Shown here: piece by piece, positions 12,266 to 36,312 of the stretch
Numbering within the stretch: the first letter of the stretch is position 1
How the letters are laid out: every line of letters begins with the position of its first letter
Origin: Candidatus Limnocylindrales bacterium
GTDB taxonomy: Bacteria; Chloroflexota; Limnocylindria; Limnocylindrales; CSP1-4
Reading direction: 5' to 3'
Length of the DNA stretch: 62,317 nucleotides
Assembly (NCBI GenBank): GCA_046707905.1
Contig: JBKKDM010000212.1
Span: 1-62,317, forward strand
The notes under the pieces: generated by a model
Databases searched by the model: none
What the model saw: the letters and a program-made list of their open reading frames with translations, nothing else
Told to the model about the DNA's origin: nothing
Made by a program: the position numbers and the translations under genes

Positions 12266-12284
12266 TCGCTGCTCACTCCTAGGT

Positions 12285-12300
12285 TATGCAATCGTATGAC
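12285..12300. promoter_or_regulatory. Third candidate LacI operator between epimerase and LacI genes
   Basis: TATGCAATCGTATGAC shares TGCAATCGT with the 10408 site. Confidence 0.5.
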
Positions 12301-12324
12301 CGCATCGAATGCTACGCTCCGCCG

Positions 12325-13449
12325 ATGGGAGTGGGGGAGCCGTCGGACAAGCGTGCCCGCGAGACGCACGGCTCGGGCACCGGAGTCGACGTGGCCGCAG
12401 AGGCGCCCGTCGGCGCCCGCCCACGCTTGGTGCCGACGATGCGCGACATCGCACAGCTCGCTGGCGTCTCGCAGAGCACGGTCTCGCGGGTCCTCAACGA
12501 CGTCCCGACGCGCGTGCCCATCGCGCCGGAGACCCGGGAGCGCGTCACGCGCGCCGCGCGAACCGTCGGGTACCGCCCGAACCCGCTCGCTCGCGGCCTC
12601 CGAGGCGCGCCGACGATGCTCCTCGGCGCCGTCGTCCGCGACATTACCGACCCGTTCTTCGCCGGGGCGATCGAAGCGCTGTCGACGGCGACCATGAGCC
12701 ACGGCTACAACCTGGTCCTCGGCCATGCCCGCGGTCGGGCGGACGACGCGGTGGCCCTGACCGCGGTCCTAGAGACGCGGCACTGCGACGCGATCGTGCT
12801 GCTCGGCGATCTCCAGGATCAGCCCCGCCTGCTGGCCGATCTGGCCGACCTCGTCGCCCCGATCGTTGGGCTGTGGCAGGGCTCGAGCCCCCTGGGCGTG
12901 CCGACCGTCGATGTCGATAACCAGGCCGGCGTGCGCGCCGGCATGGACCACCTGGTCGAGCTGGGCCACCGGCGCATTGGGTTCATGGGCGGCCGGCCGC
13001 TCGGCGACATTCGCGAGCGCCAGGCGGCCTACATCGACGTCATGCGGGAGCGGTTCGGCGGGGTGCCCGAGGGCTACATTCAGCCCGCCCCGAACACGCC
13101 CGGTGGGGGCGAGACCGCAATGCGTGCGCTCCTTGGGCTGCATCCACGACCGACTGCTGTCGTGACCTCGACGGATACGCTGGCGGTTGGGGCGCTCCAC
13201 GCCGCCTACCTCGATGGCGTAGCCGTTCCGGCCGACCTCTCGGTCGTCGGCTTCGACGACATTCTCCTGGCGAGTCACACCGTGCCGGCGCTGACCACGC
13301 TCCGAATGCCGACCGCCGACATCGTCAACCACGGCGTTCGCCTGGCCCTCGAGATGGCCCGCGAGCCGGCCGCGGGCCGCAGGGCCAGCGTCACCGTCTT
13401 CCAGCCGTCCCTGATCGTCCGCCACTCGACTGCGTCGGCTCCCGCCTGA
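12325..13449 (+). CDS. LacI family transcriptional regulator (start uncertain)
   Basis: TMRDIAQLAGVSQSTVSRVLN HTH; YRPNPLARGL hinge; LSVVGFDD. Confidence 0.93.
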   Translation: MGVGEPSDKRARETHGSGTGVDVAAEAPVGARPRLVPTMRDIAQLAGVSQSTVSRVLNDVPTRVPIAPETRERVTRAARTVGYRPNPLARGLRGAPTMLLGAVVRDITDPFFAGAIEALSTATMSHGYNLVLGHARGRADDAVALTAVLETRHCDAIVLLGDLQDQPRLLADLADLVAPIVGLWQGSSPLGVPTVDVDNQAGVRAGMDHLVELGHRRIGFMGGRPLGDIRERQAAYIDVMRERFGGVPEGYIQPAPNTPGGGETAMRALLGLHPRPTAVVTSTDTLAVGALHAAYLDGVAVPADLSVVGFDDILLASHTVPALTTLRMPTADIVNHGVRLALEMAREPAAGRRASVTVFQPSLIVRHSTASAPA

Positions 13450-13506
13450 TCGGATGGGGCGGCCGATGCCGCGCCGGGTCGCGCCAGCGCGGGCGGACGA
13501 CCGCCC

Positions 13507-14148
13507 TCAGGCGCGGGTCTTCACCGAGACGGGGGCTGGGCTTGGGAGGGTGGACGGCGCCGAATAGCCGTTCTCGGCGATCTCCGCGGCGCGGGCCTCG
13601 TACACGTCGGTGACCGGTGCGGTTCGGGCGCGGAGGCCGTCGACCACCCGGTTGTACATGGAGAAGCCCGCCGCGATCAGCACCGCGAGCTGGACATCGC
13701 CGTCCGTCGCCCCGGCATCCAGCGCGGCCTGGACGTCGGCCGACGTCAGCGCCAGCGGGTCGCGCCCGACCGTCCGCGCGATCTGCAGCAGGCCCTGCAT
13801 CTTCGGATCGAAGCCATCCGACGAGCCCTGCTTGACAGCGTCGAGCAGCGGCGCAAGCGCCGTGTCGCCCTGGCGTTCCATGAGCGCGGTCGCGAACGCG
13901 CTGTGCGAGTCCATGCAGAAGAAGCAGTCGTTCGCGGCTGAGACGGCGGTCGCCAGCGTCTCGCGCTGATCGCGCCGGATCGTCGCGCCGGGGAAGTCGT
14001 TGACGAGGAGCTCGTCGGCGAGGCCCCGCAGATGCACGCCGAGACCGGGCGTCAGTCGCATCGCCGCCCCGATTCCCGGGACGTCCGGAAGCCCGCCGAC
14101 GATCGGCGACTGCTGTGCACGGAGCGCCCGTTCCTCGTCTCGCGCCAT
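13507..14148 (-). CDS. AhpD/carboxymuconolactone decarboxylase-like peroxidase
   Basis: RETLATAVSAANDCFFCMDSH (CxxC..H) in the C-terminal part of ORF 13507..15834; MYNRVVDGL. Confidence 0.8.
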   Translation of the reverse strand: MARDEERALRAQQSPIVGGLPDVPGIGAAMRLTPGLGVHLRGLADELLVNDFPGATIRRDQRETLATAVSAANDCFFCMDSHSAFATALMERQGDTALAPLLDAVKQGSSDGFDPKMQGLLQIARTVGRDPLALTSADVQAALDAGATDGDVQLAVLIAAGFSMYNRVVDGLRARTAPVTDVYEARAAEIAENGYSAPSTLPSPAPVSVKTRA

Positions 14149-16793: not shown

Positions 16794-16862
16794 CGCCTCC
16801 GGGACGGGAACCGTCCGCCGACTTCGCGGCGGCGACCGGTCGCCGGATACTCCCGAGGGGTA

Positions 16863-16935
16863 TTGACAAAACCCTTGTCAAGAGGGCGGTTTGGGGCGTA
16901 GAATAGCCTCCAACGGCTTGTCAAGACTTGACAGG
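16863..16935 (+). promoter_or_regulatory. dnaG-rpoD promoter embedded in two inverted-repeat boxes
   Basis: TTGACAA-N5-TTGTCAA (16863-16881); TTGTCA-N18-TAGAAT (-10 at 16899-16904); CTTGTCAAG-A-CTTGACAGG (16917-16935). Confidence 0.6.
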
Positions 16936-16944
16936 CCGACAGTC

Positions 16945-18974
16945 ATGTCCGGGAGGCAGCGAAGACGGCAGGCGCGGTCCAGGCAGAGATCAAGAGCCGG
17001 CTGAACATCGTCGACGTGGTCGGCGAGACGGTGCAGCTGAGGAAGGCGGGCACGACCTTCAAGGGTCTGTGCCCCTTCCATGGCGAGAAGACGCCGTCGT
17101 TCACGGTCACCCCGAACCGCGACTCCTGGAAGTGCTTCGGCTGCGGTCTCGGGGGCGACGTGTTCTCGTTCGTCATGCAGCGTGACGGCGTGGCCTTTCC
17201 CGAGGCCCTGCGGGTTCTCGCCTCGAAGGCCGGGGTCGAGATCGACGAGCGGACGAAGCGCGAGGACGCGTATCGGGCACGGCTGCGTGACGTCCTCGAG
17301 ATGGCGATCGCGTTCTACCACCAGATCCTGACCTCCACCTCGCACGGCAAGCCGGCGCTGGACTACCTCCACGGCCGGGGCTTCACGGACGCCACCATCG
17401 AATCGGCCCAGCTGGGCTGGGCGCCGGACAGCTGGGACGTGATGAGCCGCCGACTCGTCGAAAAGCGCGGGGTCAAGCCCGAGGAGCTGGTCGAGGCCGG
17501 GATCGCGTCACCGGCGCGGTCGCACTCGCGCGGCGTCGGCGTCATCGACAAGTTCCGCGGGCGCGTGCTGTGGCCGATCCGCGACCAGAACGGTGCCGCG
17601 ACTGGCATGGGCGGCCGAATCCTCGGCGCGGAAGGGGAGGGCGGCCGCGACACCGGCCCGAAGTACCTCAACACGCCCGGTGGCCCGCTCTTCGACAAGA
17701 GCCGCTCGCTGTACCTGATCGACAAGGCCAAGTCCGCGATGCGAAAGACCGAGCAGGCCGTGATCGTCGAGGGCTACACCGACGCGCTCATGGCCCACCA
17801 GGCGGGCTTCGACAACGTCGTCGCGTCGCTCGGGACCGCGCTCACGCCGGGCCAGGTCGCGCTGCTGACGCGCTATGCGAAGCGGATCGCGCTGGCCTAC
17901 GACGTCGACTCGGCCGGCCAGAAGGCCGGGACGTTCGGGGCCCAGGCCCTCCAGTCGCTGATCGGCCAGCTCGCGGCGACCGAGAGCGGAATCGAGCTCG
18001 ACGAGGTCCGCGTCGTCCGGCTGCCGGATGGCAAGGACCCAGACGAGGTCCTGCGCGAGACGCCGGATCGCTGGCGCGAGGAGGTCCGGACCGCGCAGCC
18101 GATCGTCGAATACCTCGTGGACACCTACGCCAAGGCCTACGACCTCAAGACGCCCGGCGGCAAGGCCCGCTTCGTCGATGCGCTGATGCCGACGATCCGG
18201 GCCGTGCCCAACCCGGTGATGCGCGATGCCTACCTGCAGCTGGTCCACCGGGCCTCGGGCGTGGAGGAGCGGGTCCTGCTCGAAGTGCTCCGCGGCGCCC
18301 GTCTGGGGGGAGCGTCGGGTCTCGCCCCCGGGTCCGGCCCGGCCGGCGGCGCCCGCGTCGCCGGGACCGCGTCGGACAGCACGTCGCGCTTCAACGCCGA
18401 GGCGATCGTGGGTGCCGCCGACTCCCTGCCCGTGAGCGAGATCCTCCGCGGCGTCCTCCCCCAGGAGGCCGAGTTCCTGCGGCTGCTGCTTCTGGTGCCC
18501 GAGATCCAGCTCCGGGTCGTCGACTCGATCGGCCCGGACCAGCTCCCCAACACCGTCGCACGCGAGCTGTTCCGCGCTGTCGTGCTCGCTCGCGAGCCGG
18601 ACGACCAGGGCGTGCATCCGCCGTTCAGCCTGACGGCCCTCGTCACCTCCCTCGATCCCGAGACGGCGTCCCTGGCCCAGGCGGTCATCGCTCGCCGCGA
18701 CCCGAACCCGCGCGAGCTGTCGGAGGCGGAGCTCGCCTACGAGCTCGACCGCCTCACCATCGACCTCGAGGAGCGTTCGCTCGACGAACGCGCCGACTAC
18801 ATCAACTCGGCCATTGCCGAGGCCGAGCAGGCCCGGTCTGATGACGCCGAGGTTCGCGAATCGATCGACCAGCTGCTGCGCGAGAGCCAGGCGCTCAACG
18901 ACCAGCGCAAGTCGCTCCATCGCCGTCGCGACCAGACCCGCCTGCTCGCGCGCCCGACACCGGTGCGCGCATGA
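16945..18974 (+). CDS. dnaG: DNA primase; ATG at 16945 is out of frame with the body (probable indel near 16950)
   Basis: CPFHGEKTPSF..CFGC Zn finger, KYLNTP, VEGYTD, TOPRIM YDVD, KDPDE; the conserved EIKSRLNIVDVV lies upstream of the annotated GTG 17016 in the same frame. Confidence 0.95.
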
Positions 18975-25432: not shown

Positions 25433-25507
25433 TCCGGCGTAGCTCAGTGGTAGAGCGAGCGGCTGTTAACCGCCAGGTCGTAGGTTCGAATCCTACCGCC
25501 GGAGCCA
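25433..25507 (+). tRNA. tRNA-Asn (GTT)
   Basis: TCCGGCG/CGCCGGA acceptor stem, AGCTCAGTGGTAGAGC D-arm, CT-GTT-AA anticodon loop, GTTCGAATC T-loop, encoded CCA. Confidence 0.97.
25473..25507 (+). repeat. attL (3' end of tRNA-Asn)
   Basis: CCAGGTCGTAGGTTCGAATCCTACCGCCGGAGCCA, identical to 35513-35547. Confidence 0.95.
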
Positions 25508-25639
25508 ATCCTCTCTAGGCTGAACTCTCTAAGTTCGGAACGCCCCTGTGTACATCATCTGGGTCCCATCCTAGCTTTAGCACGACGCTCCAGAGTTCAA
25601 CTAACAGCGAGCGTGCAAGGGCAGAGGGGTAGGGGCGAG

Positions 25640-26662
25640 ATGATCGAGATTCAGCCGATCGAAAGACGCAGGCGCAACCTGTCTCACAGTGAGATAGGTC
25701 TCGATGCCAAGGCGAGCCGACGGCGAGCCCCGACGACCTACACCCCCGATGCGCTCCCGGCGCTGCGCGACAGCTTCGCGCTCCACCTCCACGCGACCCG
25801 CGCGCCCAAGACGGGCTCGATCTACGTCGGGAGCCTCGACGGCTTCATCGCCTATCTCCTGGCGAACGGGATGCCGATGACCGCTGGCGGGGTCCGACGA
25901 GAGCACGTCGAGTCGTACCTCGCCGCGTGCCGGGATCGCGGGCTTGCCCCGTCGACCGTCAGTCTCGAATACCGCTCCCTTCAGGCGTTCTTCCGCTGGC
26001 TGATCGAGGAGGACGAGATCGACCGGAGCCCGACCGAGAAGATGCGCGCCCCGAAGGTTCCCGACTCGCCGGTCCCGGTCGTGTCGCACGAGGCCATGCG
26101 CAAGCTCCTCCGCGTTACCGAGGGGAGGGACTTCACGAGCCGTCGCGACCACGGCGTCCTCCGATTGCTCTACGACTCGGGCATCCGAGCGGGCGAGCTA
26201 CTCGGCCTCTCGCTCGCCGATGTCGAGCTACGAGCGCGCCTGGCCTACGTCACCGGGAAGGGCGGTCATACGCGCGCGGTCAAGTTCGGCGCGACGACGG
26301 CGGTCGCGCTCGATCGCTACCTCCGGCTCCGGCGAGGCCATCGCTACGCCGACAATGACGCGTTCTGGCTCGGGCAGCGGGGTCGGTTCGAGTACCACGC
26401 GATGGCGGTCATGCTCGCGAAGCGCTCCGCCGCCGCGGGACTGCCCCGCGTCCATGCCCACCAGTTCCGTCACTCGTTCGCCCACGAGTATCTCGCCGGG
26501 GGCGGCCAGGAGGGGGACCTGATGCGTCTCGCGGGCTGGCGCAGCCCGCTCATGCTCCGTCGCTACGGGGCGAGCGCCGCCGTCGAGCGCGCCCACGCCG
26601 CCTACACGAGCCCCGGCGACCGTCTCGCCGCCAGCAATGGCTCTGGGCGAGGACGTGCTTAG
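25640..26662 (+). CDS. Tyrosine recombinase/integrase
   Basis: SAM-like N-domain; catalytic R (SGIRAGE), K (GKGG), HQFRH, LAGW, Y (LRRY). Confidence 0.93.
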   Translation: MIEIQPIERRRRNLSHSEIGLDAKASRRRAPTTYTPDALPALRDSFALHLHATRAPKTGSIYVGSLDGFIAYLLANGMPMTAGGVRREHVESYLAACRDRGLAPSTVSLEYRSLQAFFRWLIEEDEIDRSPTEKMRAPKVPDSPVPVVSHEAMRKLLRVTEGRDFTSRRDHGVLRLLYDSGIRAGELLGLSLADVELRARLAYVTGKGGHTRAVKFGATTAVALDRYLRLRRGHRYADNDAFWLGQRGRFEYHAMAVMLAKRSAAAGLPRVHAHQFRHSFAHEYLAGGGQEGDLMRLAGWRSPLMLRRYGASAAVERAHAAYTSPGDRLAASNGSGRGRA

Positions 26663-26815
26663 GGTGGGGCGCACGCACGACGTGCTAGCACCTTAGAGTT
26701 GGACGATCAAGCGCGCCGAGTGAGAGACGTCGCGCCAATAGGTCACTAGCCCCGTCTCGGGACGAGAGACGAGAAGGGGCCCAACAGCGGCCACGAGCCG
26801 CGGAAGGGTCCGCAG

Positions 26816-27151
26816 ATGGCGTCTCTCACCCCCGCCCAGCGAGTGGTTCGCGCTCGCGCCGCCGCGTTCGCCCAGCACGCGCAGGGCCGTACGAATACCG
26901 GACCGGCGACGGTCGCCCAGATCGTGCGATTCGAGCGCCAGGTCGACCCCGACGGCACCTTGGCCCCCGACGAGCGTGCGCGTCGCGCGAGGCTCGCGCA
27001 GCGAGCTCACATGACCCTCCTCGCTCTGCGCTCTAGTCGCGCTCGCCTCGCAAGGCGTGTACGCGAGGAGGAGGCCAGCTTCGTCACGGAGACGACCGAG
27101 GCCCGACAGGAGGCCCGACGTGACAGCGTCGACCCTCAGCGCTCACGCTAG
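26816..27151 (+). CDS. Small basic hypothetical protein typical of integrated elements
   Basis: RFERQVDPDGTL.PDERARRA..A..AHM..LAL.S.RAR pattern, recalled from actinobacterial-type mobile elements (unverified). Confidence 0.65.
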   Translation: MASLTPAQRVVRARAAAFAQHAQGRTNTGPATVAQIVRFERQVDPDGTLAPDERARRARLAQRAHMTLLALRSSRARLARRVREEEASFVTETTEARQEARRDSVDPQRSR

Positions 27152-27221
27152 CGACCCACCCGTCGGATACCGGCCTAGTCGGGTCGTTCGCTCCTCCCCG
27201 CGTGTCGCGCCCACGTCGTGA
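27120..27221 (+). CDS. Putative 33-aa small ORF
   Basis: AGGAGG RBS 6 nt before GTG; TGA overlaps the next GTG (GTGA). Confidence 0.4.
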   Translation: MTASTLSAHASDPPVGYRPSRVVRSSPRVAPTS

Positions 27222-28090
27222 CCAGTCGACGGGCGCGCATCGCGATGCTCGGGCGGATGATCGAACGACGGCGATCGCGCCTCCAGCGTGAGCGGATCGA
27301 CCCGAGCCTGCCGCGTGTAGACGAGGCCGAGGCGCTCTTCGCCGACGGGCTCGCGAGCTGGCACGCGAGACGCGGCCAGCGAGGGTTTCCGAAGCGTCTC
27401 GAGGACCCGGACGAATTCGCCTATCGGCAAGCAAGCGCGGAGATCGTCCAGCGATTCGATAACGCTGGGTGGCGCGGCTCGGGCCGCCAGCTCGGTTACC
27501 GAACGTTCGCTGAGTACGACGCGGTCGTCGAGGCAGGGCGCGACGGCGACGTCGCAGGCGATGATGGATATCCGCTAGCCGAACGGGTCACGGCCGACGA
27601 CCAGCCGTGGGACGAGGATCACGTCCCTTACGAGTTCTGGGACCCGGACGCGTCGACGATCCGCGAGCAGGATCGCTGGCAGGAGTACGCGCAGCGCATC
27701 GATCGAGAGCAGGGTCGAGCGTCTCGGATGATGGATGACGCGCTTCGCACAACCGTCTTCGAGGAGCACCTTCAGGCCGTCCTCGACCCAGACGACTTCG
27801 AGACGTGGCGGCTGCGTCGGGAGGTATCCCTCAAGGCGCTCGCCGCCATCCGCGGCGTCTCCGTGACGGCTGTCTTCTACCGCGAGGAGCAGGTGGTCCA
27901 GCGCGCTCGCGTGGAGTGGAAGGCTGTCAATCCGGACGTCCCAATCCCGCCGATCCTGTTGCGGCGACCGCGCCACGACAGCCGACAGGCCGCCCGCAAC
28001 TTAAATAGCGAACGACTGTACCTAGGGAATAGAGGGACCTCGTTTCGGTCCCGCCAATCCGTCCAACGACCGGAGCCCGATCGCGGGTAG
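27218..28090 (+). CDS. Hypothetical protein with C-terminal sigma-70 region-4-like HTH
   Basis: LDPDDFETWRLRREVSLKALAAIRGVSVTAVFYREEQVVQRAR resembles an r4 HTH. Confidence 0.55.
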   Translation: MTSRRARIAMLGRMIERRRSRLQRERIDPSLPRVDEAEALFADGLASWHARRGQRGFPKRLEDPDEFAYRQASAEIVQRFDNAGWRGSGRQLGYRTFAEYDAVVEAGRDGDVAGDDGYPLAERVTADDQPWDEDHVPYEFWDPDASTIREQDRWQEYAQRIDREQGRASRMMDDALRTTVFEEHLQAVLDPDDFETWRLRREVSLKALAAIRGVSVTAVFYREEQVVQRARVEWKAVNPDVPIPPILLRRPRHDSRQAARNLNSERLYLGNRGTSFRSRQSVQRPEPDRG

Positions 28091-28123
28091 CCGGTCGTTT
28101 GCCCTTATCCGGGAGACGCCGAG

Positions 28124-28330
28124 TTGGTACGAACCCTCGATCGCCCGTCGCGTCGGAACCAGGACCCGGCGCTCGACCACCTGAGGCGCGCGACCGCGCA
28201 GTTGAAGGCGGCGCGCTCGTCCGCGGAGACATGGCCCGAGTGCCCTGCCGGTCTCGTCGCCGACATCTACGTGATGGAGCTGGCGGCCCTCGAGTTGCTT
28301 ATCCGCGTGCAGCGCGATCCACCGCGATGA
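28124..28330 (+). CDS. Small hypothetical protein
   Basis: GGGAG RBS before TTG; stop overlaps the next ATG (ATGA). Confidence 0.55.
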   Translation: MVRTLDRPSRRNQDPALDHLRRATAQLKAARSSAETWPECPAGLVADIYVMELAALELLIRVQRDPPR

Positions 28331-28980
28331 GTGTCCGCGAGGCCAAAGGTCGGCTCCTGTCGCGGGAGTACATGGCCGACCGAGAGTTCATGACCGAGTA
28401 CGACGCTGCCGAGCGGGAGTGGTACCTGCTCACGGCCCTGTTCGCGGACGACGCCGGGTTCCTACCCTGGGACCCGCCCGACAACGCCGCGAACCTCTAC
28501 CGCTACGAGGTCCCGAGCGAGCGTGAGGAGCGCGTCGCAGGCTACGTCGCGCACTTCACCGCGACGGGCAGGTTCATCGACCTCGGCTGCGGTCACGCGC
28601 TCATGCCGCGTGGGCCCGCCAAGCGGCCCCGAGGCCATCGCCGCGAGTTCGCTGTCAAGGAAGAGCACTCGCAATGCATTGGGAATGCTCTCGAAACCGC
28701 TGGAGAGCTTTCGGCCTCCTATCCAGTCCAATCCAGTCCGGTCAATTCCAGTCCAGTCGAGATAGGCGTATCTCGAAACATTCGCGCGCGCGAGTCCTCG
28801 ACCCGAGGCGCTCCCGGCCCTGAGAACCCTGTAGGGAAGGAACGAGCGAACGGCGGGTTCGCCGAGTTCGCCCTCGAGGCCGGCGGGTTCGTCGCGGAGC
28901 TAGCGAGGGCCTCGCCAGGCATGGCTCTTCACGCCTCGCTCGACGCACGGGCTGCCGACGCGCCTGAGGATGCCTCGTGA
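28327..28980 (+). CDS. Putative phage-type replication initiator
   Basis: RLLSREYMAD..AAEREWYLLTALFADDAG resembles the N-terminus of phage replisome organisers (..ADD.G..); internal pentamer repeats encode YPVQSSPVNSSPV. Confidence 0.6.
   Translation: MSVREAKGRLLSREYMADREFMTEYDAAEREWYLLTALFADDAGFLPWDPPDNAANLYRYEVPSEREERVAGYVAHFTATGRFIDLGCGHALMPRGPAKRPRGHRREFAVKEEHSQCIGNALETAGELSASYPVQSSPVNSSPVEIGVSRNIRARESSTRGAPGPENPVGKERANGGFAEFALEAGGFVAELARASPGMALHASLDARAADAPEDAS
28721..28760 (+). repeat. Eight tandem 5-bp repeats (consensus RTCCA) within the rep gene
   Basis: ATCCA GTCCA ATCCA GTCCG GTCAA TTCCA GTCCA GTCGA. Confidence 0.8.
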
Positions 28981-29411
28981 CCCGTCTCTTCTGGGCGGCG
29001 TCTCGGGACGGGATCGCCCACGGCGCTCGCCCTGGATACGCCCGAACCCTCTGCGGCGAGAAGACGCAGGACCCGCGGTGGGCCTGGCCCGCGGAGTCAC
29101 GCTGCCCTCGGTGCGTCGCGATCGACGTCCGGCCGACCGTTCGCTCGGTGGTCGGGGGCCGCGCCAATGCAAGCGGTAGCGATACGACGGGTCACGCTCA
29201 TCGGCCGGCCGCGTCGCTACCAGCCGGTCGGGAGGCGTCGGGTTCGGCGCTTCCCGACATCGGCACGCCCCCGCAGGGCTCGGGTTCGAGCCCACGCGGG
29301 ACCCCAGCGTTCGACCCGTCCGTCGTTCGACGTGACGCGGTTCTCTCCTTGCCGGCCGATCGTGGGCCGCGGACGGGCGAACGCTCCATCACCGGGAGGA
29401 GCAGAACGTGA
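28977..29411 (+). CDS. Hypothetical protein with N-terminal H-C-CxxC zinc-finger-like motif
   Basis: IAHG..TLCG..RCPRC; GTGA overlaps on both sides. Confidence 0.55.
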   Translation: MTRLFWAASRDGIAHGARPGYARTLCGEKTQDPRWAWPAESRCPRCVAIDVRPTVRSVVGGRANASGSDTTGHAHRPAASLPAGREASGSALPDIGTPPQGSGSSPRGTPAFDPSVVRRDAVLSLPADRGPRTGERSITGRSRT

Positions 29412-29998
29412 TCGACGAGGAGATCGAACAGGCACGACTGTCAGGTCGCGTCGCGAACTTCCAGCCCGGAGCCATGGCGGCGATCGAGGCGCCGAAGACG
29501 CCCGATAGCTCCAGGGAGGAGAGAGTCGCCGACGTCGAGACGCCGCCTTCAGGCGAGGTACCCGAACGCCTCCAGCGGGCGCGGACTCGACGCCTGGCAT
29601 GGCGCGCGGCGCTCGGGGCCCTGCGAGGGAGGGGCGACGCTGACATCGCGGAGGTCCATGCCGCTGTCGCGACTGGCGACACCGAGAGGATCGTCCTGGC
29701 GACGATCCGGCATGCGATCGGTGCGCTCCTTGACTCAGAGCTCGGGAGACCATCGACGGCGTTCCACGAGATCAGCGTCTCGATCGAAACCGAGCTTCAG
29801 GCCGCCGCGTATGCGGACCCACACGCGACGCTCGCAGGCCTCGAAGGCGACGACGGACTCGACGTTGCTCTGATCCGCGAGTACGCGACGGCGGCGCTGA
29901 CGCCCGACCCGCATCGATTCCACGGCGTGACCGGGCAGCTGCTGCGGCCGGACGCACCGTCTCTCAGCCTGCTGCGAACCATGCAGCCGCGCCGATGA
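29408..29998 (+). CDS. Hypothetical helical protein
   Basis: GGAGGA RBS; translationally coupled on both sides. Confidence 0.65.
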   Translation: MIDEEIEQARLSGRVANFQPGAMAAIEAPKTPDSSREERVADVETPPSGEVPERLQRARTRRLAWRAALGALRGRGDADIAEVHAAVATGDTERIVLATIRHAIGALLDSELGRPSTAFHEISVSIETELQAAAYADPHATLAGLEGDDGLDVALIREYATAALTPDPHRFHGVTGQLLRPDAPSLSLLRTMQPRR

Positions 29999-30246
29999 AG
30001 GCCCGCGTGCTCCCGCCCATCGACCCGCTTACCGGCCAGCATCCTGTTCCGCCCGATCGAGCCTTCATCCGGTGCACCTGCGGTGGTCCTGCATGGCGGA
30101 TCGCCGAGGGCGTCGACGAGTGGGAGTGCGCCGCGCCCGTTGGTCCGCACGGACCCCACGCCCCGCGCCAGGTAGCGGATGCGACAGGGATGCCGCAGAT
30201 CGCCTACGGGCCCTTCCGACTCCGGGACGTCGGCCCGCGGTCGTGA
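29995..30246 (+). CDS. Small Cys/His (Zn-ribbon-like) protein
   Basis: RCTCGG..WECAA..H; ATGA and GTGA overlaps. Confidence 0.5.
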   Translation: MKARVLPPIDPLTGQHPVPPDRAFIRCTCGGPAWRIAEGVDEWECAAPVGPHGPHAPRQVADATGMPQIAYGPFRLRDVGPRS

Positions 30247-30644
30247 TCCGCGTCGTCGGCGTCCTCCGCGCGAACAGCGCGACCGAGATCATGGGCATCC
30301 TCACCAACTTCCGGCCAGACGAGGTCCCTGTACTCGACCGCCACTGGGGCCGCGCTATCGGATGGGTCCGATCGCTGACTGCCGACCGATCTGACATCTG
30401 GTTCCTGGCCCTGCTCGACGACGACGCGGCAGCGCGGCTGCCCTCGGCCATATCGTCCGAGATGGCTGCCCTCGGCGTGCCGATCAGACCCGATGAACCC
30501 GGGCTCGTGCTGCCGTTCGCGCTCCCGACGCGATATCGGGGCTCGCTCGGCCCTGGCTACACCCTCGAAGCCGTCGCTCTCATCGGCGACGGCCGTCCCG
30601 CCGCGCCCGGGTCCGAAGCGTGGCTGATGGACGACGCGCGCTGA
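30243..30644 (+). CDS. Putative phage prohead (Mu-like/HK97-type) maturation protease domain
   Basis: NF..VPVLDRH..AIGWV..L..IW..ISSE..GYTLEAVAL..RPA matches the His/Ser motif order of prohead proteases. Confidence 0.55.
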   Translation: MIRVVGVLRANSATEIMGILTNFRPDEVPVLDRHWGRAIGWVRSLTADRSDIWFLALLDDDAAARLPSAISSEMAALGVPIRPDEPGLVLPFALPTRYRGSLGPGYTLEAVALIGDGRPAAPGSEAWLMDDAR

Positions 30645-30897
30645 TCATCGCCCGAGCGCGTCTCTGGGCGAGACATTCTGGCTCGTACGGTGGCGGTAGA
30701 ACTGAGCGAGCGCACAGCAAAGCGTGGGATCGCGTAGATCATCGATCTCCAGCTCAGCGCGGCCTAGGCGGCCGCCTCGCCACGAAGGCCACGACCGGAG
30801 CAACCGCCCCTTTGTTCCTCGTCCGACCCCCAGGGACCCCGCTCGCGGCCATTAACCCACACAAGGCCTACGTCTGAACCGGAGGCGCTGAAAGTCG

Positions 30898-31155
30898 ATG
30901 CCTAAACCGTCGCCTGCAGACATCCCGGACGCGGAGTGGTACCCGCCATGGCACGCTCGTATCCGCAAGTCGCGCTCGAAGTCCCAGTCCGTCCAGAACC
31001 GTGTCCTGGCGAGGTTCTTCGCGGCCTGTCGTGCTCGAGACGCGGTCCTGCTAGCGCGTCGGGCCGAGGAGGAGCGAGCGCGCGAGCGCTCGGAGCGAGC
31101 GGCGTGGATGCGTCGCTACCGGGCTCGCAACAAGGAGCTACGCGCCGGGCAGTAG
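30898..31155 (+). CDS. Small basic hypothetical protein
   Basis: GGAGG RBS; Arg-rich helical C-terminus (AAWMRRYRARNK). Confidence 0.55.
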   Translation: MPKPSPADIPDAEWYPPWHARIRKSRSKSQSVQNRVLARFFAACRARDAVLLARRAEEERARERSERAAWMRRYRARNKELRAGQ

Positions 31156-31167
31156 GCGCAACCTATC

Positions 31168-32142
31168 TCACTCTGAGACAGGTCCGTCGGCGACCTCTCC
31201 CCAGAGGTCATCCCACCCGCCGTCCCTCGACGACTCTGGCTCGCGCGACCATTCCGCCAGGCGCTCGCCGAGCTCTGGTCGGGCGGCGATCAGGGCCCGC
31301 ACGACGAGCTCCACGTTCGCCTCGTCCTGGTTGATCAGGGCGCGTGCGATCGCGCCCGGCAGGTTCCCATCCGCCTCGGGGTCGAACGTCAAGCCGATCT
31401 CGATCGTCTTCGGGTACGGCGGTCTTCCCGCCAGGCTCCGATCGATGCCCTCGATGATGGCGCGCTGGCTCGGCGACTTCACTAGCCGATACGCCGTCTC
31501 TGCGGAGATGACGCCCGCGTCGACGTCGGCAGCGAGAGCGGGAAACGCGTCGAGAGCCAAGGCTCTCTTCATGTTGCGGTGGCCTGTCGCTCTAGAGACG
31601 CCGTAACGGGCGAGGAGCTGATCAATCGTCAGACCGGTTCGATCGTTTCGCGCACCGGCCGCGAGGACGATCCCGTGTCGGTTGCAAGCTCGGATCAGCG
31701 CTCGACCCATCGCGAGTGGCCCGAGCTGTCGGCGATTGAAATTCCTTCGAAACGCTCGGTCGAACTTCCCCTCTTCGGTCAGGTCTAGAACCACTCGCGG
31801 GTAGTCTCCTTGGACCCTGCCCTCGGCGAGCAGCTCCCCCCAGATTTGCTTGCGGGAGTGGCCGTCGATGACGTTCCCGTGCTCGTCCTCCTCGACCGGG
31901 TTCTCTATGCCGTTGGCCGCGATGTCCTCCTTCAGGGACGCGTATAGCGCCGGGGGCAGCGGTTCGAAGACCTGATAGGGGCCGTCCCCGGGCCGGTGTC
32001 GCGGGCTGCCCGCTTCGAGCAGGCGGAGGGCCTCCTCGCTGCGACGGGGCACGAGGCGACGAACCTTGCCGTTCGATCGCACCCTTCGATCCGGCAGCTT
32101 CAGCGTCTGGTCGTTTAGCGTCTGTTCGTCTCGGCCCGCCAT
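31168..32142 (-). CDS. ParB/Srx N-terminal-domain protein with HTH (start uncertain)
   Basis: PLPPALYASLKEDIAANGIENPVEEDEHGNVIDGHSR, NFNRRQL, HTH-like TIDQLLARYGVSRAT. Confidence 0.8.
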   Translation of the reverse strand: MAGRDEQTLNDQTLKLPDRRVRSNGKVRRLVPRRSEEALRLLEAGSPRHRPGDGPYQVFEPLPPALYASLKEDIAANGIENPVEEDEHGNVIDGHSRKQIWGELLAEGRVQGDYPRVVLDLTEEGKFDRAFRRNFNRRQLGPLAMGRALIRACNRHGIVLAAGARNDRTGLTIDQLLARYGVSRATGHRNMKRALALDAFPALAADVDAGVISAETAYRLVKSPSQRAIIEGIDRSLAGRPPYPKTIEIGLTFDPEADGNLPGAIARALINQDEANVELVVRALIAARPELGERLAEWSREPESSRDGGWDDLWGEVADGPVSE

Positions 32143-32187
32143 GGTCACCGAGAATGTTATTCGGGTACCGGCCGCTACCATTCTCCG

Positions 32188-32820
32188 ATGCTCGACGTGA
32201 TCCCCCAGCTGGTCGCGAACGACGGTCGGCGCGGCCTCCTGGCTGCGATCGCGCATCCCGATCGATTCGCGATCGAGCCGAAGATTGACGGTGTTCGCGG
32301 GCTGATCGTCTTCCGCCCGGATGGCGTAATCGAGACCCGGAACCGCCGTGGCGTCGTCCGCGACTGGCAGCGGCACCGACCCTTCGCTGCGGGCCTCCGG
32401 CGGCTTGGTCAGCGGCTCCCGATCCTCTGGGAAGGCACGGTCCTCGACTCCGAGCTAATCGCCGACCGGTTCGCCGGCACGATGGCAGCGCTACAGGGCT
32501 CGGCTCGGCACGGCGACGCCCTGCGCGTCCATGTGTTCGACGTGCCGTACCTCGCTGGCGTAGACCTTCGCGCGTTGTCATGGGAGGCGCGGCGGGAGCG
32601 GCTGGAACTGCTCGCTCAGGCGTTCGAGCCGCCCTACGAGCTGGTTCCTGTCCTGACACCAAATCCCGCCCTCGCAGACGCGATGGTCGATGGGCATCTC
32701 GAGGGGCTGGTCCTGAAGGAACGATCTGCGCGGTATCGCGACGGTTCGCGGGCTGGCTGGTCGAAAGTCAAGGACCCTAGCTGGTACCAGCGCGAGTCCT
32801 GGCGGTTCGCTCGCGGCTAG
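32188..32820 (+). CDS. ATP-dependent ligase adenylation (nucleotidyltransferase) domain without OB domain
   Basis: Motif I EPKIDGVR, III VLDSEL, IIIa VFDV, IV EGLVLK, V WSKVK; ORF ends 15 aa after motif V. Confidence 0.85.
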   Translation: MLDVIPQLVANDGRRGLLAAIAHPDRFAIEPKIDGVRGLIVFRPDGVIETRNRRGVVRDWQRHRPFAAGLRRLGQRLPILWEGTVLDSELIADRFAGTMAALQGSARHGDALRVHVFDVPYLAGVDLRALSWEARRERLELLAQAFEPPYELVPVLTPNPALADAMVDGHLEGLVLKERSARYRDGSRAGWSKVKDPSWYQRESWRFARG

Positions 32821-32850
32821 AAGGCCCTCGCGCACCGGTATCCTCGTCAC

Positions 32851-34407
32851 ATGGCCGAGGAAACGAACGCGCTCTACTACGGCGACAACCTCGACGTTCT
32901 GCGCCGCCACGTCGCTATCGAGTCCGTCGACCTCGTCTACCTCGACCCGCCGTTCAACTCGAACGCCGACTACAACGTCTTGTTCTCGGAGCATGGAGAG
33001 AAGTCGGCCGCCCAGATCGAGGCGTTCACCGACACGTGGGAGTGGAACACCGAAGCCCGGCTGACGTACGAAGAGGTAGTCGAGGCTGGCGGCAAGACGG
33101 CCGAGACGATGCGCGCCTTTCGCACCATGATCCCCGGCTCGGACATGCTGGCCTACCTGGCGATGATGGCGCCCCGGCTGATCGAGCTACATCGCGTCCT
33201 GAAGCCGACGGGCTCGCTGTACCTCCACTGCGACCCGACGGCGAGCCACTATCTGAAGCTGCTGATGGACGCGATATTCGGCGCTGAGAACTATCGAAAC
33301 GAGATCGTCTGGCACTACAACACCGGCGGCAAGGGCAAGAACACCTTCCTGCGAAAGCACGACACGATCCACTGGTACTCGAAGAGTGCCCAGTACACGT
33401 TCAACCGCGACGAAGTCGCGCTTCCCCGGACGCCTGGCACCGCGCATCTTCGGCACGGCGTGACCGAAGACGGGCGCGAGTACTACGAGGACTACTCGCC
33501 TCGGAAGAGCGGCAAGCAGTACCGGTGGTATCTCGACGAAGGCGTCACCCCCATGGACGTCTGGACCGACATCCAGGCGCTGAACCCCATGGCCAAGGAA
33601 CGTCTGGGCTACCCAACACAGAAGCCCGTCGCGCTGCTTGAGCGGATCATCGCGGCTTCCTCCAAGCCCGGCGATCTTGTCCTCGATCCGTTCTGTGGAT
33701 GCGGCACAACGATCGACGCGGCGCAGGCGCTCGGCCGGCGCTGGATCGGGATCGACGTCACTCACCTGTCAATCGGGCTCATCAAGCACAGGCTCGTGGA
33801 CCGCTTCGGACCCGAGATCGGGGAGACCTATCGAACCGTCGGGGAGCCGACCACCACCGATGACGCTCGCGTTCTCGCCAAGGACGACCCGTTCCAGTTC
33901 CAAGCTTGGGCTCTCGGCCTAGCTGGCGCGCGGCAGCCAGGGAGCGACAGGAGGGGCGGCGACAAGGGGATCGACGGCGTCCTCTATTTCCACGACGCTG
34001 AGAGCGGACCGACGCGGCGCATTGTGTTCAGCGTGAAGGCGGGAAAGCTCAATCCTGGATACGTTCGAGACCTTCGCGGCGTGCTCGAACGCGAGGCCGC
34101 CGAGATAGGCGTTCTCCTTTCGTTCGAAGAACCGACTTCCGGAATGAGAGCGGAGGCGGCCGACGCCGGCTTCTTCCTCAGCGGAGCCGGTGACGGCCGT
34201 CTGAAGGAGAACCCGTGGGGACGGAAGTACCCACGATTGCAGCTCCTCACCGTCGGCGAGCTGCTCGACGGTAGGACGGTGGAGTACCCGCACACGGCTG
34301 GGGCGAACGTGACCTTCCGCCGAGCGCCTCGTGCAAGAGGCTCCTCGGCCGAGCAGACCGCGCTGTTCCTCGGCGACCCGTCGAGCGAGGAGAGCTTTCG
34401 AGAATGA
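32851..34407 (+). CDS. Beta-class N4/N6 DNA methyltransferase fused to a C-terminal Mrr-like endonuclease domain
   Basis: LYYGDNL, motif IV DPPF, YPTQKP, motif I DPFCGCGTT; C-terminal DKGIDG..SVKAG..VRDLRG. Confidence 0.88.
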   Translation: MAEETNALYYGDNLDVLRRHVAIESVDLVYLDPPFNSNADYNVLFSEHGEKSAAQIEAFTDTWEWNTEARLTYEEVVEAGGKTAETMRAFRTMIPGSDMLAYLAMMAPRLIELHRVLKPTGSLYLHCDPTASHYLKLLMDAIFGAENYRNEIVWHYNTGGKGKNTFLRKHDTIHWYSKSAQYTFNRDEVALPRTPGTAHLRHGVTEDGREYYEDYSPRKSGKQYRWYLDEGVTPMDVWTDIQALNPMAKERLGYPTQKPVALLERIIAASSKPGDLVLDPFCGCGTTIDAAQALGRRWIGIDVTHLSIGLIKHRLVDRFGPEIGETYRTVGEPTTTDDARVLAKDDPFQFQAWALGLAGARQPGSDRRGGDKGIDGVLYFHDAESGPTRRIVFSVKAGKLNPGYVRDLRGVLEREAAEIGVLLSFEEPTSGMRAEAADAGFFLSGAGDGRLKENPWGRKYPRLQLLTVGELLDGRTVEYPHTAGANVTFRRAPRARGSSAEQTALFLGDPSSEESFRE

Positions 34408-34799
34408 CGGATCGCGAGGCGGCGTGGGACGCCGTCCACGAGGCGCTGCCCGCCCGCTGGACCGTGGGCCAGGCCTCGACGAGTGATCCGCTTACACGCA
34501 CGTGGAGCGTGACAGCGCGAGGCCCGCACCCTGGTCGCGGCAAGGCTCCGCAGACCGTCACCGGGACAGGCGAGGATGAGGTAGCCGCGCTGCGCGACCT
34601 GGACGACCAGCTTCGTGGCCGCGCTGATGCGGGGCTCGGGATGGTCGAGCGACGCAGGCGGCTCCGGCTCGCCTACGTCGACGGCGCCGAGGAATGGTCG
34701 CGGGAGAACATCGGCCGCAGCCTGACAGTCGAGGAGCTAGAGGGTGTACTCCGTCGGTACCCCGGGCCGGTAGCGCCCTCAGCCGATCAACACTCCTAG
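34404..34799 (+). CDS. Hypothetical protein coupled to the MTase
   Basis: ATGA overlap with the MTase stop; WSVTA..VTGTGEDEVAALRDL is weakly HicB/dsRBD-like. Confidence 0.65.
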   Translation: MTDREAAWDAVHEALPARWTVGQASTSDPLTRTWSVTARGPHPGRGKAPQTVTGTGEDEVAALRDLDDQLRGRADAGLGMVERRRRLRLAYVDGAEEWSRENIGRSLTVEELEGVLRRYPGPVAPSADQHS

Positions 34800-35357
34800 G
34801 GCCTGAAAGGCAAGTCCGAGAAGAACAAGGCCGAGGCCCGTCGCGGCCGTACGGAGACCGCCGATCGCAATGCGGGCCCCCTGGCGATCGAGGCGCCGCA
34901 CAGCCTCGTCGACCTTCTCCTCGACCGCCGTAAGGCCGCGCCGCAAGTCCGAGTCGACTGCGCTTCGTCGGTGCATCTCGTCGGCGATCTGCGATGTGAG
35001 TTCTCGGGTGCGACGATCGAGTTCCGCAAGCGCCGCCGCCGTATCGAGAGACGGGTCAAGCGGGGCTGCACCAACGATGCCCTCGGCGGAGAAGGTGGCG
35101 GTGGCCTGGATCGAGCCGCTGCCGCTGACCGTGATCCCGACGGTCGGCGGATACCCCCGCACGCGACGTAGGAAGTTCCCAGCTTCGCCGACGGCCCGTC
35201 GGGCGCGAGCCCTCGCCGCGGTTACGAGCGCGGCGTCGCCGAAGAGGTTCTCCTCGGTGAACTCGTGCCACGTTCTGAGGAGGCCATAACCCGTCACGAT
35301 GATCCCAACGAACTCGACGGCCATGCCCGCGAGGGACCACCAGTTTCCTGCCGTCAT
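34779..35357 (-). CDS. Hypothetical membrane protein (N- and C-terminal TM, central coiled coil)
   Basis: Hydrophobic termini; heptad-like LAELDRRTRELTSQI..VEEKVDEAVRRLD. Confidence 0.65.
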   Translation of the reverse strand: MTAGNWWSLAGMAVEFVGIIVTGYGLLRTWHEFTEENLFGDAALVTAARARARRAVGEAGNFLRRVRGYPPTVGITVSGSGSIQATATFSAEGIVGAAPLDPSLDTAAALAELDRRTRELTSQIADEMHRRSAVDSDLRRGLTAVEEKVDEAVRRLDRQGARIAIGGLRTAATGLGLVLLGLAFQALGVLIG

Positions 35358-35512
35358 CGATCTTCGCAGCCTTCCGTGCGGTTGCTACCGCCGCCCATTG
35401 TCGGGCGGAGCCCTTACTCGCACGGTGCCGGTTAGGGCTCTAACTGTCTAACTAATAGTGCTCGATTCGTGCCGGGTCCTACGTTCGGAAGCACGCCGTT
35501 CTGCGGGCTACT

Positions 35513-35547
35513 CCAGGTCGTAGGTTCGAATCCTACCGCCGGAGCCA
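35513..35547 (+). repeat. attR (duplicated tRNA-Asn 3' end)
   Basis: Exact 35-bp copy of 25473-25507. Confidence 0.95.
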
Positions 35548-35548
35548 T

Positions 35549-36187
35549 TCACCTCCTGTGTTCGGATGGCCGAAACGGCTCATGCTCGTGCGCGAGCCAG
35601 ACCAGGTCGGGGTCGAGCGCGAGGACCAGCGTTCGGCCCTCGGTTGGCGGCTCGTCGAACTCGCCGTGCCAGACCGCCACGTCGCCGCCGATGACGATCG
35701 GCCGCGCGCCAGTCTCGACGACCACCACCTGGGTGCCGGGTGTATGGCCCGGCGCCGGGACGAGCCGTACACCGGGCAGCAGCTCCAGCTCGCCGTCGAC
35801 CGGCACGTACTGAACGCCCGGGGCGTCGACCCATTCGCGAATGGTGTAGCCGTCTTCGCCGCGCGCATCGTCAAGCTCCCGGCGCTGGACGTAGATCGGC
35901 TTCCCGGCGAACAGGTGGTTGCCCCCGCAGTGATCACCGTGGAGGTGGGTGTTGACGACGATGTCGATGCCGGCGACGTCGAAGTCCGGTTGCTCGCTAA
36001 CCGGGATCAGGGTCGGGTTCATGTCGGCCAACAATAGGTGCAGCTCCGTCAAGCCGGTGTCGACGACGACGCGCCCAACGGGGTGATCGATGACGTGCAC
36101 GTAGATCGGCATCAGCTCGCCCTCGACGTGCAGGTCGGCAACGCGGACCGGCGCGACGGTGATCGGGGCGGGGACGTTCACGGTCAT
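35549..36187 (-). CDS. MBL-fold hydrolase (N-acyl homoserine lactonase-like)
   Basis: VVDTG, THLHGDHCGG, PGHTPG, GGD. Confidence 0.85.
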   Translation of the reverse strand: MTVNVPAPITVAPVRVADLHVEGELMPIYVHVIDHPVGRVVVDTGLTELHLLLADMNPTLIPVSEQPDFDVAGIDIVVNTHLHGDHCGGNHLFAGKPIYVQRRELDDARGEDGYTIREWVDAPGVQYVPVDGELELLPGVRLVPAPGHTPGTQVVVVETGARPIVIGGDVAVWHGEFDEPPTEGRTLVLALDPDLVWLAHEHEPFRPSEHRR

Positions 36188-36312
36188 CTCCTGGGCGCGC
36201 GCATGCGCGAGCGGAAGGCCGCATCGATCCTAGGCAATGCGGACGTCGGCAGGGCGATTCGTCCTCGATCGGCACCGCGCGCGGCCGGGAGCCTGGGCTA
36301 GGATCGCCGTGG

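Follow-up and report, generated by a model that had tools for sequence, protein, structure and literature searches.

The 3' end of a tRNA-Asn gene in an uncultured soil Chloroflexota (Limnocylindrales) bacterium is occupied by about 10 kb of DNA that carries an integrase gene, and the question is what kind of element this is and by what means it could spread. We have analyzed it within a window of 62,317 nucleotides, i.e., the whole stretch of DNA under study. A previous sequence-only reading had proposed a satellite-like element, possibly of an undescribed family, in a poorly studied host lineage. The statement on the host was correct, since the housekeeping genes match best to MAGs assigned to 'Candidatus Limnocylindrales' or Chloroflexota, with at most 92% identity. 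As for the element, we consider it on balance probable that it is a compact, intact, non-autonomous integrative island of phage ancestry, inserted into tRNA-Asn by its own tyrosine integrase. For now, it can be regarded as an island of an ordinary kind, in which most genes are of unknown nature.

The target tRNA-Asn (GTT) gene (25433..25507, + strand) was identified by ARAGORN and by Rfam (tRNA, 71.1 bits). Its final 35 nt constitute the attL core (25473..25507), which is repeated exactly in the attR core (35513..35547), as reported previously. Both cores were found by a repeat search (family D5) and by comparing the flanks with those of the same-genus genome G005. The identity of the repeats drops directly beyond the 35-bp core (43 nt at 93%), and 10,005 bp lie between the cores. 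Since G005 carries the empty site, in which the left and right flanks join on one core copy with a 39-bp overlap, the element is a genuine insertion, bounded and intact. The large ORFs of the element have a GC3 of 0.78-0.85, whereas 37 ORFs from the rest of the window have a median of 0.89.

The int gene (25613..26662, + strand) adjoins attL and encodes a tyrosine integrase (PF00589, E = 6.2e-20, with SAM-like N-domains; phrog_1, E = 4.5e-33). Its likely start is the ATG at 25640, preceded by a GGGG/GAG-rich stretch. The canonical catalytic pattern of tyrosine integrases is R-K-H-R-H/W-Y, and the residues R192, K216, H283, R286, W309, and Y318 were located in the expected sequence contexts. 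This agrees with the intact R-K-H-R-W-Y set described before, all six residues having been placed against the general pattern and not against a reference alignment. The best phage matches are integrases of Mycobacterium phages (33% identity, 2e-34), and the matches to plasmid Xer-like proteins are weaker. The o111 gene (26816..27151, + strand) encodes a small basic protein without a family match in Pfam, PHROGs, or NCBIfam, whose homologues lie 3' of related integrases in G000 C126, G000 C78, G001:C16, and G022:C28. Together with the present locus (G000 C212), the int-o111 pair is thus conserved at five loci, and o111 is present in 7 of 61 genus genomes. We infer that o111 is a partner of the integrase, either as a recombination directionality factor or in another role, and the two genes would form an integration/excision module.

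The o290 gene (27218..28090, + strand) encodes a 290-aa putative DNA-binding protein that resembles a sigma factor according to an AF2 model and structure comparison. In the model, three helices form an N-terminal domain, which an acidic disordered insert of 57 residues (87-143) links to a C-terminal region-4-like helix-turn-helix (HTH); the pLDDT is 83-95 across the folded parts. In the structure comparison (VIA), it matches the ECF sigma factor SigL (6dv9_F) with Z 8.5 over 142 aligned residues and an rmsd of 16.4, and sigma region 4 chains with Z 7.6-8.1, rmsd 2.0-2.4, and 62-72 aligned residues; according to the tool, Z values of about 8 are commonplace among helical proteins. The top three matches in BFVD are phage sigma factors, with E values of only 6-8e-3, and neither comparison reaches a firm threshold. 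The hhalign comparison with 17 ECF sigma factors of the same genome placed the HTH in register with a probability of only 21%. There is no sigma match in Pfam or NCBIfam, and regions 2 and 4 are not recognisable by profile. Thus, o290 is predicted to fold like a two-domain sigma factor, an assignment that by sequence is weak. It would share the predicted two-domain layout and the region-4-like HTH with phage-encoded and ECF sigma factors; unlike them, it has no Pfam sigma domain and carries the acidic insert and a conserved RRPRHD tail. The family is small, as a search of 1.84 billion representatives recovered no more than 11 relatives. No match was found among isolated phages (INPHARED), and nothing in IMG/VR when the closest homologue, P0020, was scanned singly.

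The following six genes, all on the + strand, form a tightly packed chain: o68 (28124..28330), with a TTG start and no homologue elsewhere in the same genome; o217 (28327..28980); o144 (28977..29411), with a CxxC-type N-terminus and a low-complexity tail, whose coding status is the least certain in the chain (GC2 0.72); o196 (29408..29998), an acidic ORFan; o83 (29995..30246), a small Cys-rich ORF; and o133 (30243..30644), the final gene. Six ATGA/GTGA overlaps had been described here. Those at 28327, 28977, 29408, 29995, and 30243 are real, while position 28124 is the TTG start of o68, 33 nt past the previous stop. The protein o290 might steer the host RNA polymerase to this six-gene translationally coupled operon of the element. 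The cluster search for o196 recovered only the protein itself among 5.8 billion clustered proteins, and none in IMG/VR.

The o217 gene had been called rep-like. It encodes a winged-helix/zinc protein according to the AF2 model and an alignment of metagenome homologues (A1), and no ORF of the element matches a replication-initiator family in Pfam, PHROGs, or NCBIfam. A conserved winged-helix domain of 120 aa with invariant C88, H90, H114, and C117 is followed by a variable tail. The pLDDT is 83-90 over residues 1-100, and the structure matches are generic winged-helix proteins with Z of at most 6.3. Sequence searches of the PDB with profiles A1 and A2 gave only E > 0.5. There are 18 metagenome homologues at 48-77% identity, and the genomic context was seen for four of them (contigs L018-L021, one from IMG/VR and three others of short length); contig L022 carries a further relative. 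The IMG/VR contig is a 38.7-kb phage contig with RecE, HNH, and large terminase genes, and the o217 homologue lies in its early region. The o217 gene is therefore a phage-type early gene, and the occurrence of its family on a terminase-bearing phage contig supports the phage ancestry of the element. The coupled operon would thereby include a protein common to a phage early region, being the only one of the 15 element proteins with a counterpart on that contig. No match to o217 was found among isolated phages (INPHARED). Five homologues are on contigs of 7.2-12.4 kb, where relatives of the element may be found.

Past a small basic ORF, o85 (30898..31155, + strand), the right arm opens with a gene on the - strand (31168..32142) for a 324-aa protein that had been labeled ParB-like. 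In favor of the label, its three best sequence matches in the PDB are ParB family proteins (residues 49-151), with E values of only 0.055-0.13. Against it, Pfam ParBc is absent even at E <= 10, and all the matches are sub-threshold, including those to HTH domains; a PHROG of unknown function, phrog_21315, was matched at 1e-5. We keep the name ParB-like/HTH in this loose sense. The database copy has the 324-aa form, and no other homologue was found there, nor any in IMG/VR. A 402-aa version of the ORF (to 32376), which overlaps the ligase gene in antisense, was discarded as probably too long. Its first 67 residues seem to be conserved in G022 only because the ligase gene on the opposite strand is conserved, and they are not a real N-terminus. 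Since at least two ORFs of the element resemble DNA-binding proteins, the lack of a repressor, as read previously, cannot be asserted.

The lig gene (32188..32820, + strand), which does not appear in the sequence-only reading, encodes a 210-aa protein that contains only the nucleotidyltransferase domain of an ATP-dependent DNA ligase (PF01068, 5.4e-13, exceeding the cut-off; NHEJ ligase TIGR02779, 3.9e-18, below the cut-off). In the LigD ligase domain of M. tuberculosis (Rv0938, PDB 1vs0), which has 310 residues, the alignment is confined to residues 19-194; the two proteins share the nucleotidyltransferase domain, the KxDG lysine of motif I, and the subsequent motifs III, IIIa, IV, and V. Unlike LigD, the ORF stops 15 residues past motif V and has no OB-fold domain with motif VI. 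Judging from these motifs, the protein may self-adenylate, and a sealing activity is doubtful. The next gene (32851..34407, + strand) encodes an N6/N4 DNA methyltransferase (PF01555, 2.2e-47; PADLOC MTase_II, 3e-64), which bears out the methyltransferase cargo noted before, fused to a degenerate Mrr-type endonuclease-like domain (PF22722, inactive REase, 1.8e-6; PF04471, 9.8e-5). Genes 57% identical are found in G013 and G018. The PADLOC matches are restricted to methyltransferase models, and thus no known defence system is present. The o131 gene (34404..34799, + strand) encodes a small protein that accompanies ligase genes in other islands, its homologues adjoining ligase fragments on C126 and C164 and occurring also in G022:C35. 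The mem192 gene (34779..35357, - strand) encodes a predicted membrane protein with hydrophobic N- and C-termini, judged by eye, and has no family in Pfam, PHROGs, NCBIfam, or PADLOC. The right arm as a whole, i.e., the ParB-like/HTH protein, Lig, the orphan methyltransferase, o131, and the membrane protein, might be a DNA-transaction cargo protecting or maintaining the DNA of the element.

A 31-nt near-repeat (family D14) containing a 21-nt palindrome has two copies in the element and none elsewhere in the 3.3-Mb genome, with 0 expected by chance. Copy 1 (25670..25700) lies within the first ~20 codons of int, and copy 2 (31154..31184) spans the stop codons of the convergent o85 and ParB-like genes; the hairpin is perfect only on the + strand in copy 1 and only on the - strand in copy 2. 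Through the two palindromes, int and the ParB-like gene could be under a common regulation. This repeat is another feature absent from the sequence-only reading. Promoter, terminator, and inverted-repeat scans of the element gave nothing above shuffles, and the largest non-coding gap (253 bp, 30645..30897) contains no Rfam family and no promoter-like or terminator-like site. A 21-nt match of this gap to contig C36 was attributed to chance because it sits inside an ABC-permease gene.

The searches in Pfam, PHROGs, and NCBIfam agree with the earlier statement that capsid, portal, terminase, tail, relaxase, and FtsK genes are lacking: none of these virion and conjugation families was found in the 15 chosen ORFs. 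The other 49 ORFs of at least 60 aa in any frame have no match to any Pfam family, so that capsid, portal, terminase, relaxase, FtsK, and primase families are absent from all 64. The Walker A motif [AG]xxxxGK[ST] is absent from all six frames, and with it any P-loop NTPase. Therefore, the element cannot package its DNA, conjugate, or run a helicase alone, and without transfer machinery its spread is limited to vertical inheritance or to help provided in trans, for which a helper phage would be the most plausible candidate. Nevertheless, the uncharacterised ORFs could hide replication, packaging, or hijacking functions, because 6 of the 15 (o68, o144, o83, o133, o85, and mem192) were compared with the family libraries and the same genome only, and o196 and the ParB-like protein have no homologues.

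The proposal of a family was not supported, as no syntenic relatives were found in 24 same-genus genomes (DNA search), in 300 class genomes (o290), in 400 phylum genomes (o217 profile), or in a pattern scan of all species-representative genomes. Short DNA matches to same-genus genomes, at least four with lengths of 40-64 nt and E values between 5e-6 and 1e-4 (27320-27383 and 30222-30455), were read as GC-rich chance. Among public runs, a near-identical core region was found in a single one, which is probably the source sample, and neither a virome run nor a listed RNA run contains it. Excess coverage and attP/attB junctions had been suggested as checks, and they gave no direct sign of activity. 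In the assembled contigs of the single run with the element, the depth is 13.5 in the element vs 12.4-12.8 in the flanks, which is equivalent, and no attP/attB joint was found. The candidate joints listed for two other runs, with sides of 21-28 nt, belong to different organisms. The other contigs of the bin, among them phage contigs, have no exact match of at least 22 nt to the element, and thus a common cos or pac site is not seen.

These data have to be weighed against the idea of a true phage satellite, in which a helper would induce excision, the o290-driven operon would interfere with or exploit this helper, and the 10-kb DNA or its concatemers would be packaged in helper capsids. The size, the tRNA site, the intact att sites, the compact co-oriented operon, and the absence of virion genes of its own fit with this idea; in addition, one gene is common with a real phage, and the integrase is nearest to those of temperate actinophages. 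Possible helpers exist in the bin, with large terminases on C123 and C37 and HK97 capsids on C65, C91, and C78. The latter is a second small element of the same genome, which within 9 kb combines a related int-o111 module with genes for a primase-helicase and a major head protein; therefore, the genome seems to harbor satellite-like elements. Integrative elements packaged in virions and devoid of capsid genes have also been described by Eppley et al. (2022; PMC9618062). However, we found no primase/replicase, primase-helicase, Rep, AlpA, small terminase, scaffold, or capsid/size-redirecting family, and the lack of shared sequence in the bin, the chromosome-level depth without a junction, the single matching run, and the lack of syntenic relatives argue in the same direction. 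With no hallmark family, no stretch of at least 22 nt shared in the bin, and a flat depth, the satellite label could not be sustained, and we regard a satellite as rather unlikely. Still less likely is the bolder proposal of a founding member of a new kind of Chloroflexota satellite, with its own sigma factor to activate a six-gene hijack operon, no replication or packaging genes, transport in the capsids of an HK97-type phage of the host, and the 7-12-kb o217 contigs as relatives.

The element could otherwise be what is left of a prophage that lost its structural, lysis, and replication genes by an internal deletion, keeping the integrase, early/regulatory genes, and moron cargo between intact att sites. 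The phage-type integrase and the o217 homologue in a phage early region would be in agreement with this origin, and phages commonly carry sigma factors, methyltransferases, ParB-like proteins, and ligases as accessory genes, as indicated by the BFVD and PHROG matches. Nonetheless, none of the 64 ORFs contains a remnant of a structural, lysis, or packaging gene, frameshifts and truncations were not seen in any gene, the five overlaps are all preserved, and the related phage contig matches a single protein, which makes a remnant improbable. Finally, conjugal movement by means of an FtsK-like translocase of its own or a borrowed relaxase and oriT would make it an AICE-like or integrative mobilisable element. 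The pSAM2-type actinomycete elements (AICE) have a similar size and integrate into tRNA genes. Against such a lifestyle, the AICE genes RepSA, RepAM, prim-pol, Nudix, and FtsK/SpoIIIE gave no family match, no relaxase was found, no frame contains a Walker A motif, and the plasmid integrase matches are weaker than the phage ones, so that we consider it very improbable.

To our knowledge, the Limnocylindria are abundant in soil and freshwater and have no cultured phage-host system. If the element is only an island, it provides one more case of integrase-driven gene flux in this class, and two small protein families, o217 and o290, merit naming. If it depends on a helper, it would extend satellites to the Chloroflexota and add a hijack strategy based on an element-encoded sigma factor. 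In any case, the C78 element is the better lead on the satellite question.

Regarding known systems, the element resembles the PICI, cf-PICI, P4-like, and PLE satellites in its size of ~10 kb, the tyrosine integrase at an att site, the tRNA target, and the compact co-directional operons. The hallmark lists of satellites correspond to SatelliteFinder-type definitions, and none of the hallmarks of these four groups (primase-replicase, AlpA/Stl-type regulators, small terminase, and capsid or size redirection) is found in the element. A second comparison is with the tRNA-Gln island C126 of the same genome, whose integrase, o111, and o131 are 45, 47, and 69% identical to those of the element. Both have a ligase fragment, an insertion at a tRNA 3' end, and long direct repeats. 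However, none of the ten central ORFs of the element is common with C126, the middle of which holds ordinary cargo in place of the o290-o133 module: an ECF sigma factor recognised by sequence and, judged by eye, a long ORF next to it and a hydrolase-like ORF. The VEIMEs, some of which lack known replication genes, offer a further comparison (Eppley et al., 2022; PMC9618062). They were defined by concatemers in marine virus particles, for which the soil element offers no counterpart, and they have recurrent primase/helicase, AlpA, and small terminase genes, all of them absent in the element. Nevertheless, both are small, bear an integrase, lack capsid genes, and have many genes without database homologues, and some VEIME modules hold methyltransferases and plasmid-like partition genes.

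The only tRNA gene that ARAGORN detects in the window, a tRNA-Asn(GTT) gene at 25433-25507, ends in 35 nt (25473-25507) that are repeated exactly at 35513-35547, and beyond the repeat identity falls at once. The exact attL and attR proposed at this tRNA gene are thus borne out, and the two repeats enclose 10,005 bp. In G005, a genome of the same genus, the left flank and the tRNA directly abut the right flank, with a 39-bp overlap on one copy of the core. Since both flanks meet there on a single core copy, the element is an insertion and G005 holds a natural empty site in the genus. The ORF adjoining attL (int) encodes a tyrosine integrase (Pfam PF00589, 6e-20; PHROG integrase, 4.5e-33), whose residues R192, K216, H283, R286, W309 and Y318 follow the canonical catalytic pattern of these enzymes. 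All six are found in the sequence contexts expected for them, in agreement with the intact R-K-H-R-W-Y set. A tyrosine integrase has inserted the element into tRNA-Asn in a site-specific manner. The right flanks of the element genome and of G005 also differ, since about 70 bp at the empty site stand in for about 620 bp (window 35669-36290). The ORF to the right of attR (35549-36187, minus strand) looks metallo-beta-lactamase-like, judging its fold by eye, and mostly lacks a counterpart at the empty site of G005.

Fifteen ORFs of the element were accepted as genes by codon-position GC. Pfam recognized only three of them above its cut-off, i.e., the integrase, a ligase and a methyltransferase, and NCBIfam recognized the same three, every match falling under the equivalog cut-off. 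PHROGs contributed one extra family, of unknown function, for a ParB-like ORF. The remaining 49 ORFs of at least 60 aa, taken in all frames, gave no Pfam match. The absence of capsid, portal, terminase, tail, relaxase and FtsK genes reported in the sequence-only reading stands, since the family libraries revealed none among the 64 ORFs. Moreover, the Walker A motif is absent from every frame, and thus the element has no P-loop NTPase. It lacks autonomous transfer, packaging and helicase-driven replication.

The methyltransferase, which was also the sole PADLOC match, is fused according to Pfam to a degenerate Mrr-type domain, and the methyltransferase of the earlier description is real. The ligase (32188-32820; 210 aa), missed in that description, is an ATP-dependent enzyme that contains motifs I to V, lacks the OB domain and aligns with 1vs0 (LigD ligase domain, 310 residues) over residues 19-194. 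The ParB-like gene is located at 31168-32142 and probably encodes 324 aa, the form present in the protein database; its assignment to ParB is weak. Five of the six overlaps claimed to couple consecutive ORFs are present (28327, 28977, 29408, 29995 and 30243), whereas 28124 is a TTG start located 33 nt past the preceding stop.

The host is a soil Limnocylindrales (Chloroflexota) MAG, its housekeeping genes matching records of that group at up to 92% identity. Members of the integrase family, again with the partner o111, also occur on two other contigs of the same genome bin, C126 and C78, and in two further genomes of the genus. C126 carries an 11.2-kb tRNA-Gln island (2410-13633 of the reversed contig, about C126:58636-69859, reverse strand) with a 56-bp direct repeat at its bounds and ordinary cargo. 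This island has its integrase, o111, o131 and a fragment of the ligase in common with the element, but an ECF sigma factor, along with further cargo, occupies its middle part. The ligase, reduced to the nucleotidyltransferase domain, and o131 recur together at the ends of islands of the genus (C126, C164 and contig C35 of G022), the ligase of these pairs being mostly decayed by truncation or frameshift. In the element (32188-34799) the methyltransferase separates both genes.

Within the bin, paralogues were found only for int, o111, the ligase C-terminus, the methyltransferase and o131, and the ten central ORFs have none there. When 301 genomes of the class were searched with the o290 protein, the only match was the protein itself; a set of 1.84 billion representative proteins yielded 11 relatives at E<=1e-3, of which the closest shares 58% identity. 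One o290 homologue is carried by a contig of 39.9 kb. For o217 there are 18 metagenome relatives (48-77% identity) with a common 120-residue domain containing the invariant residues C88, H90, H114 and C117. Five of these relatives come from contigs of 7.2-12.4 kb. The o217 profile recovered only its own genome among 401 genomes of the phylum, and scanning every species-representative genome for its pattern yielded no confirmed case. Neither o196 nor the ParB-like protein had a relative in a search of 5.8 billion clusters. One o217 relative is encoded in the early region of a 38.7-kb IMG/VR contig (L018) that is clearly a phage, since it carries a RecE-like exonuclease, HNH endonucleases and a large terminase. 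Neither L018 nor four short metagenome contigs contain a counterpart of any element protein besides o217. In the L018 terminase (16853-18850), the terminase proper covers residues 180-641, and fused to it on the N-terminal side is an HNH endonuclease domain at residues 21-103. On another o217-bearing contig, of 3 kb (L021), a 464-aa ORF (57-1451) resembles by eye a large serine recombinase and lies about 600 nt upstream of the o217 homologue. Taken together, the element is a real and intact island of phage ancestry, made mostly of orphan genes, in an understudied phylum.

The predicted structure of o217 (pLDDT 83-90 for residues 1-100) is a generic winged helix. Foldseek retrieved nothing from the PDB at E<=1e-3, the Z scores from VIA did not exceed 6.3, a plasmid initiator N-domain being one match among many regulators, and the best BFVD match was an uncharacterised Gordonia phage protein (1.2e-3), a 'replisome organizer' appearing at 1.7e-2. 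From these matches, the Rep identity previously suggested for this gene does not follow. The o290 model (pLDDT 83-95 in its folded parts) contains an acidic disordered linker at residues 87-143. Its best VIA matches are sigma factors, among them the full-length ECF SigL at Z 8.5 and stand-alone region-4 domains, which score Z 7.6-8.1 and superpose over 62-72 residues with an rmsd of 2.0-2.4 A, and the top three in BFVD are phage sigma factors (E 6-8e-3). A profile comparison with the 17 ECF sigmas of the bin placed the helix-turn-helix in register at a probability of only 21%. These models suggest, with moderate confidence, that o290 is a divergent sigma-like factor.

Two copies of a 31-nt near-repeat, 27/31 identical and containing a 21-nt palindrome, are the only ones in the 3.3-Mb genome. 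Copy 1 (25670-25700) lies within the first codons of int and copy 2 (31154-31184) extends across the o85 stop codon and that of the ParB-like gene. Copy 1 folds into a perfect hairpin on the int sense strand alone and copy 2 on that of the ParB-like gene alone, so that one transcript would be antisense, at its 3' end, to the 5' codons of the second. This hints at a role at the RNA level or at an antisense pairing of both transcripts. In the most likely working of the element, Int and o111 would perform integration and excision, o290 would steer RNA polymerase to the operon of coupled genes o68-o133, DNA would be bound by o217 and the methyltransferase would shield the element DNA, while the ParB-like/HTH protein and the two palindrome copies might constitute a regulatory link.

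It had been proposed that the element belongs to a possibly undescribed family of satellites, a kind of element that exploits helper phages. We consider this unlikely and found nothing that speaks positively for it. A replication module is absent, as are genes for packaging or for a capsid. No family could be demonstrated, no syntenic relatives having appeared in the genomes searched with o290 (301 of the class) and o217 (401 of the phylum). The element core was found in one public run only, probably its source, where contig depth is 13.5 for the element vs 12.4-12.8 for the flanks. No attP/attB joint is present in that run's assembled contigs, which break at the att repeats, and this is weak evidence because contigs drop rare variants. 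The excess coverage and junctions proposed as a check for a satellite did not appear in the contigs of this run. The element shares no exact stretch of 22 nt or more with the other contigs of the bin. Much closer to a satellite in appearance, and a better candidate for one than the tRNA-Asn element, is a 9.0-kb element on C78 (11003-20005), at whose two ends 41 bp of the tRNA-Val 5' half are repeated. Its products comprise an integrase (32% identity with that of the tRNA-Asn element), a homologue of o111, a primase-helicase that matches PHROG primase families at 1e-15 to 1e-19, an HTH protein and a major head protein (PF05065, 1.9e-20), whose gene has a single in-frame TAG. This C78 element has the look of a cf-PICI-like satellite of a Chloroflexota genome that encodes its own capsid. 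Elsewhere in the bin, C123 and C37 carry genes for a large terminase, and HK97 capsid genes are also present on C65 and C91. Among the matches listed by a full-text search, judged by title and start of abstract, none described phage satellites of Chloroflexota.

The tRNA-Asn island differs from P4, PICI, cf-PICI and PLE satellites, which have a replication module and packaging or capsid genes, from AICEs, which have an FtsK-like translocase and Rep, and from defective prophages, which retain remnants of structural genes. VEIMEs are virion-packaged concatemers by definition (PMC9618062). The 11-kb mycobacterial EPIP satellites of a 2025 preprint carry genes for a small terminase, for head-tail connectors and for a tape measure protein (PMC12822802), none of which is found in the element. 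In its working and organisation the element is like a small integrative island or satellite, and it belongs to a known kind, the tRNA-targeting integrase islands.
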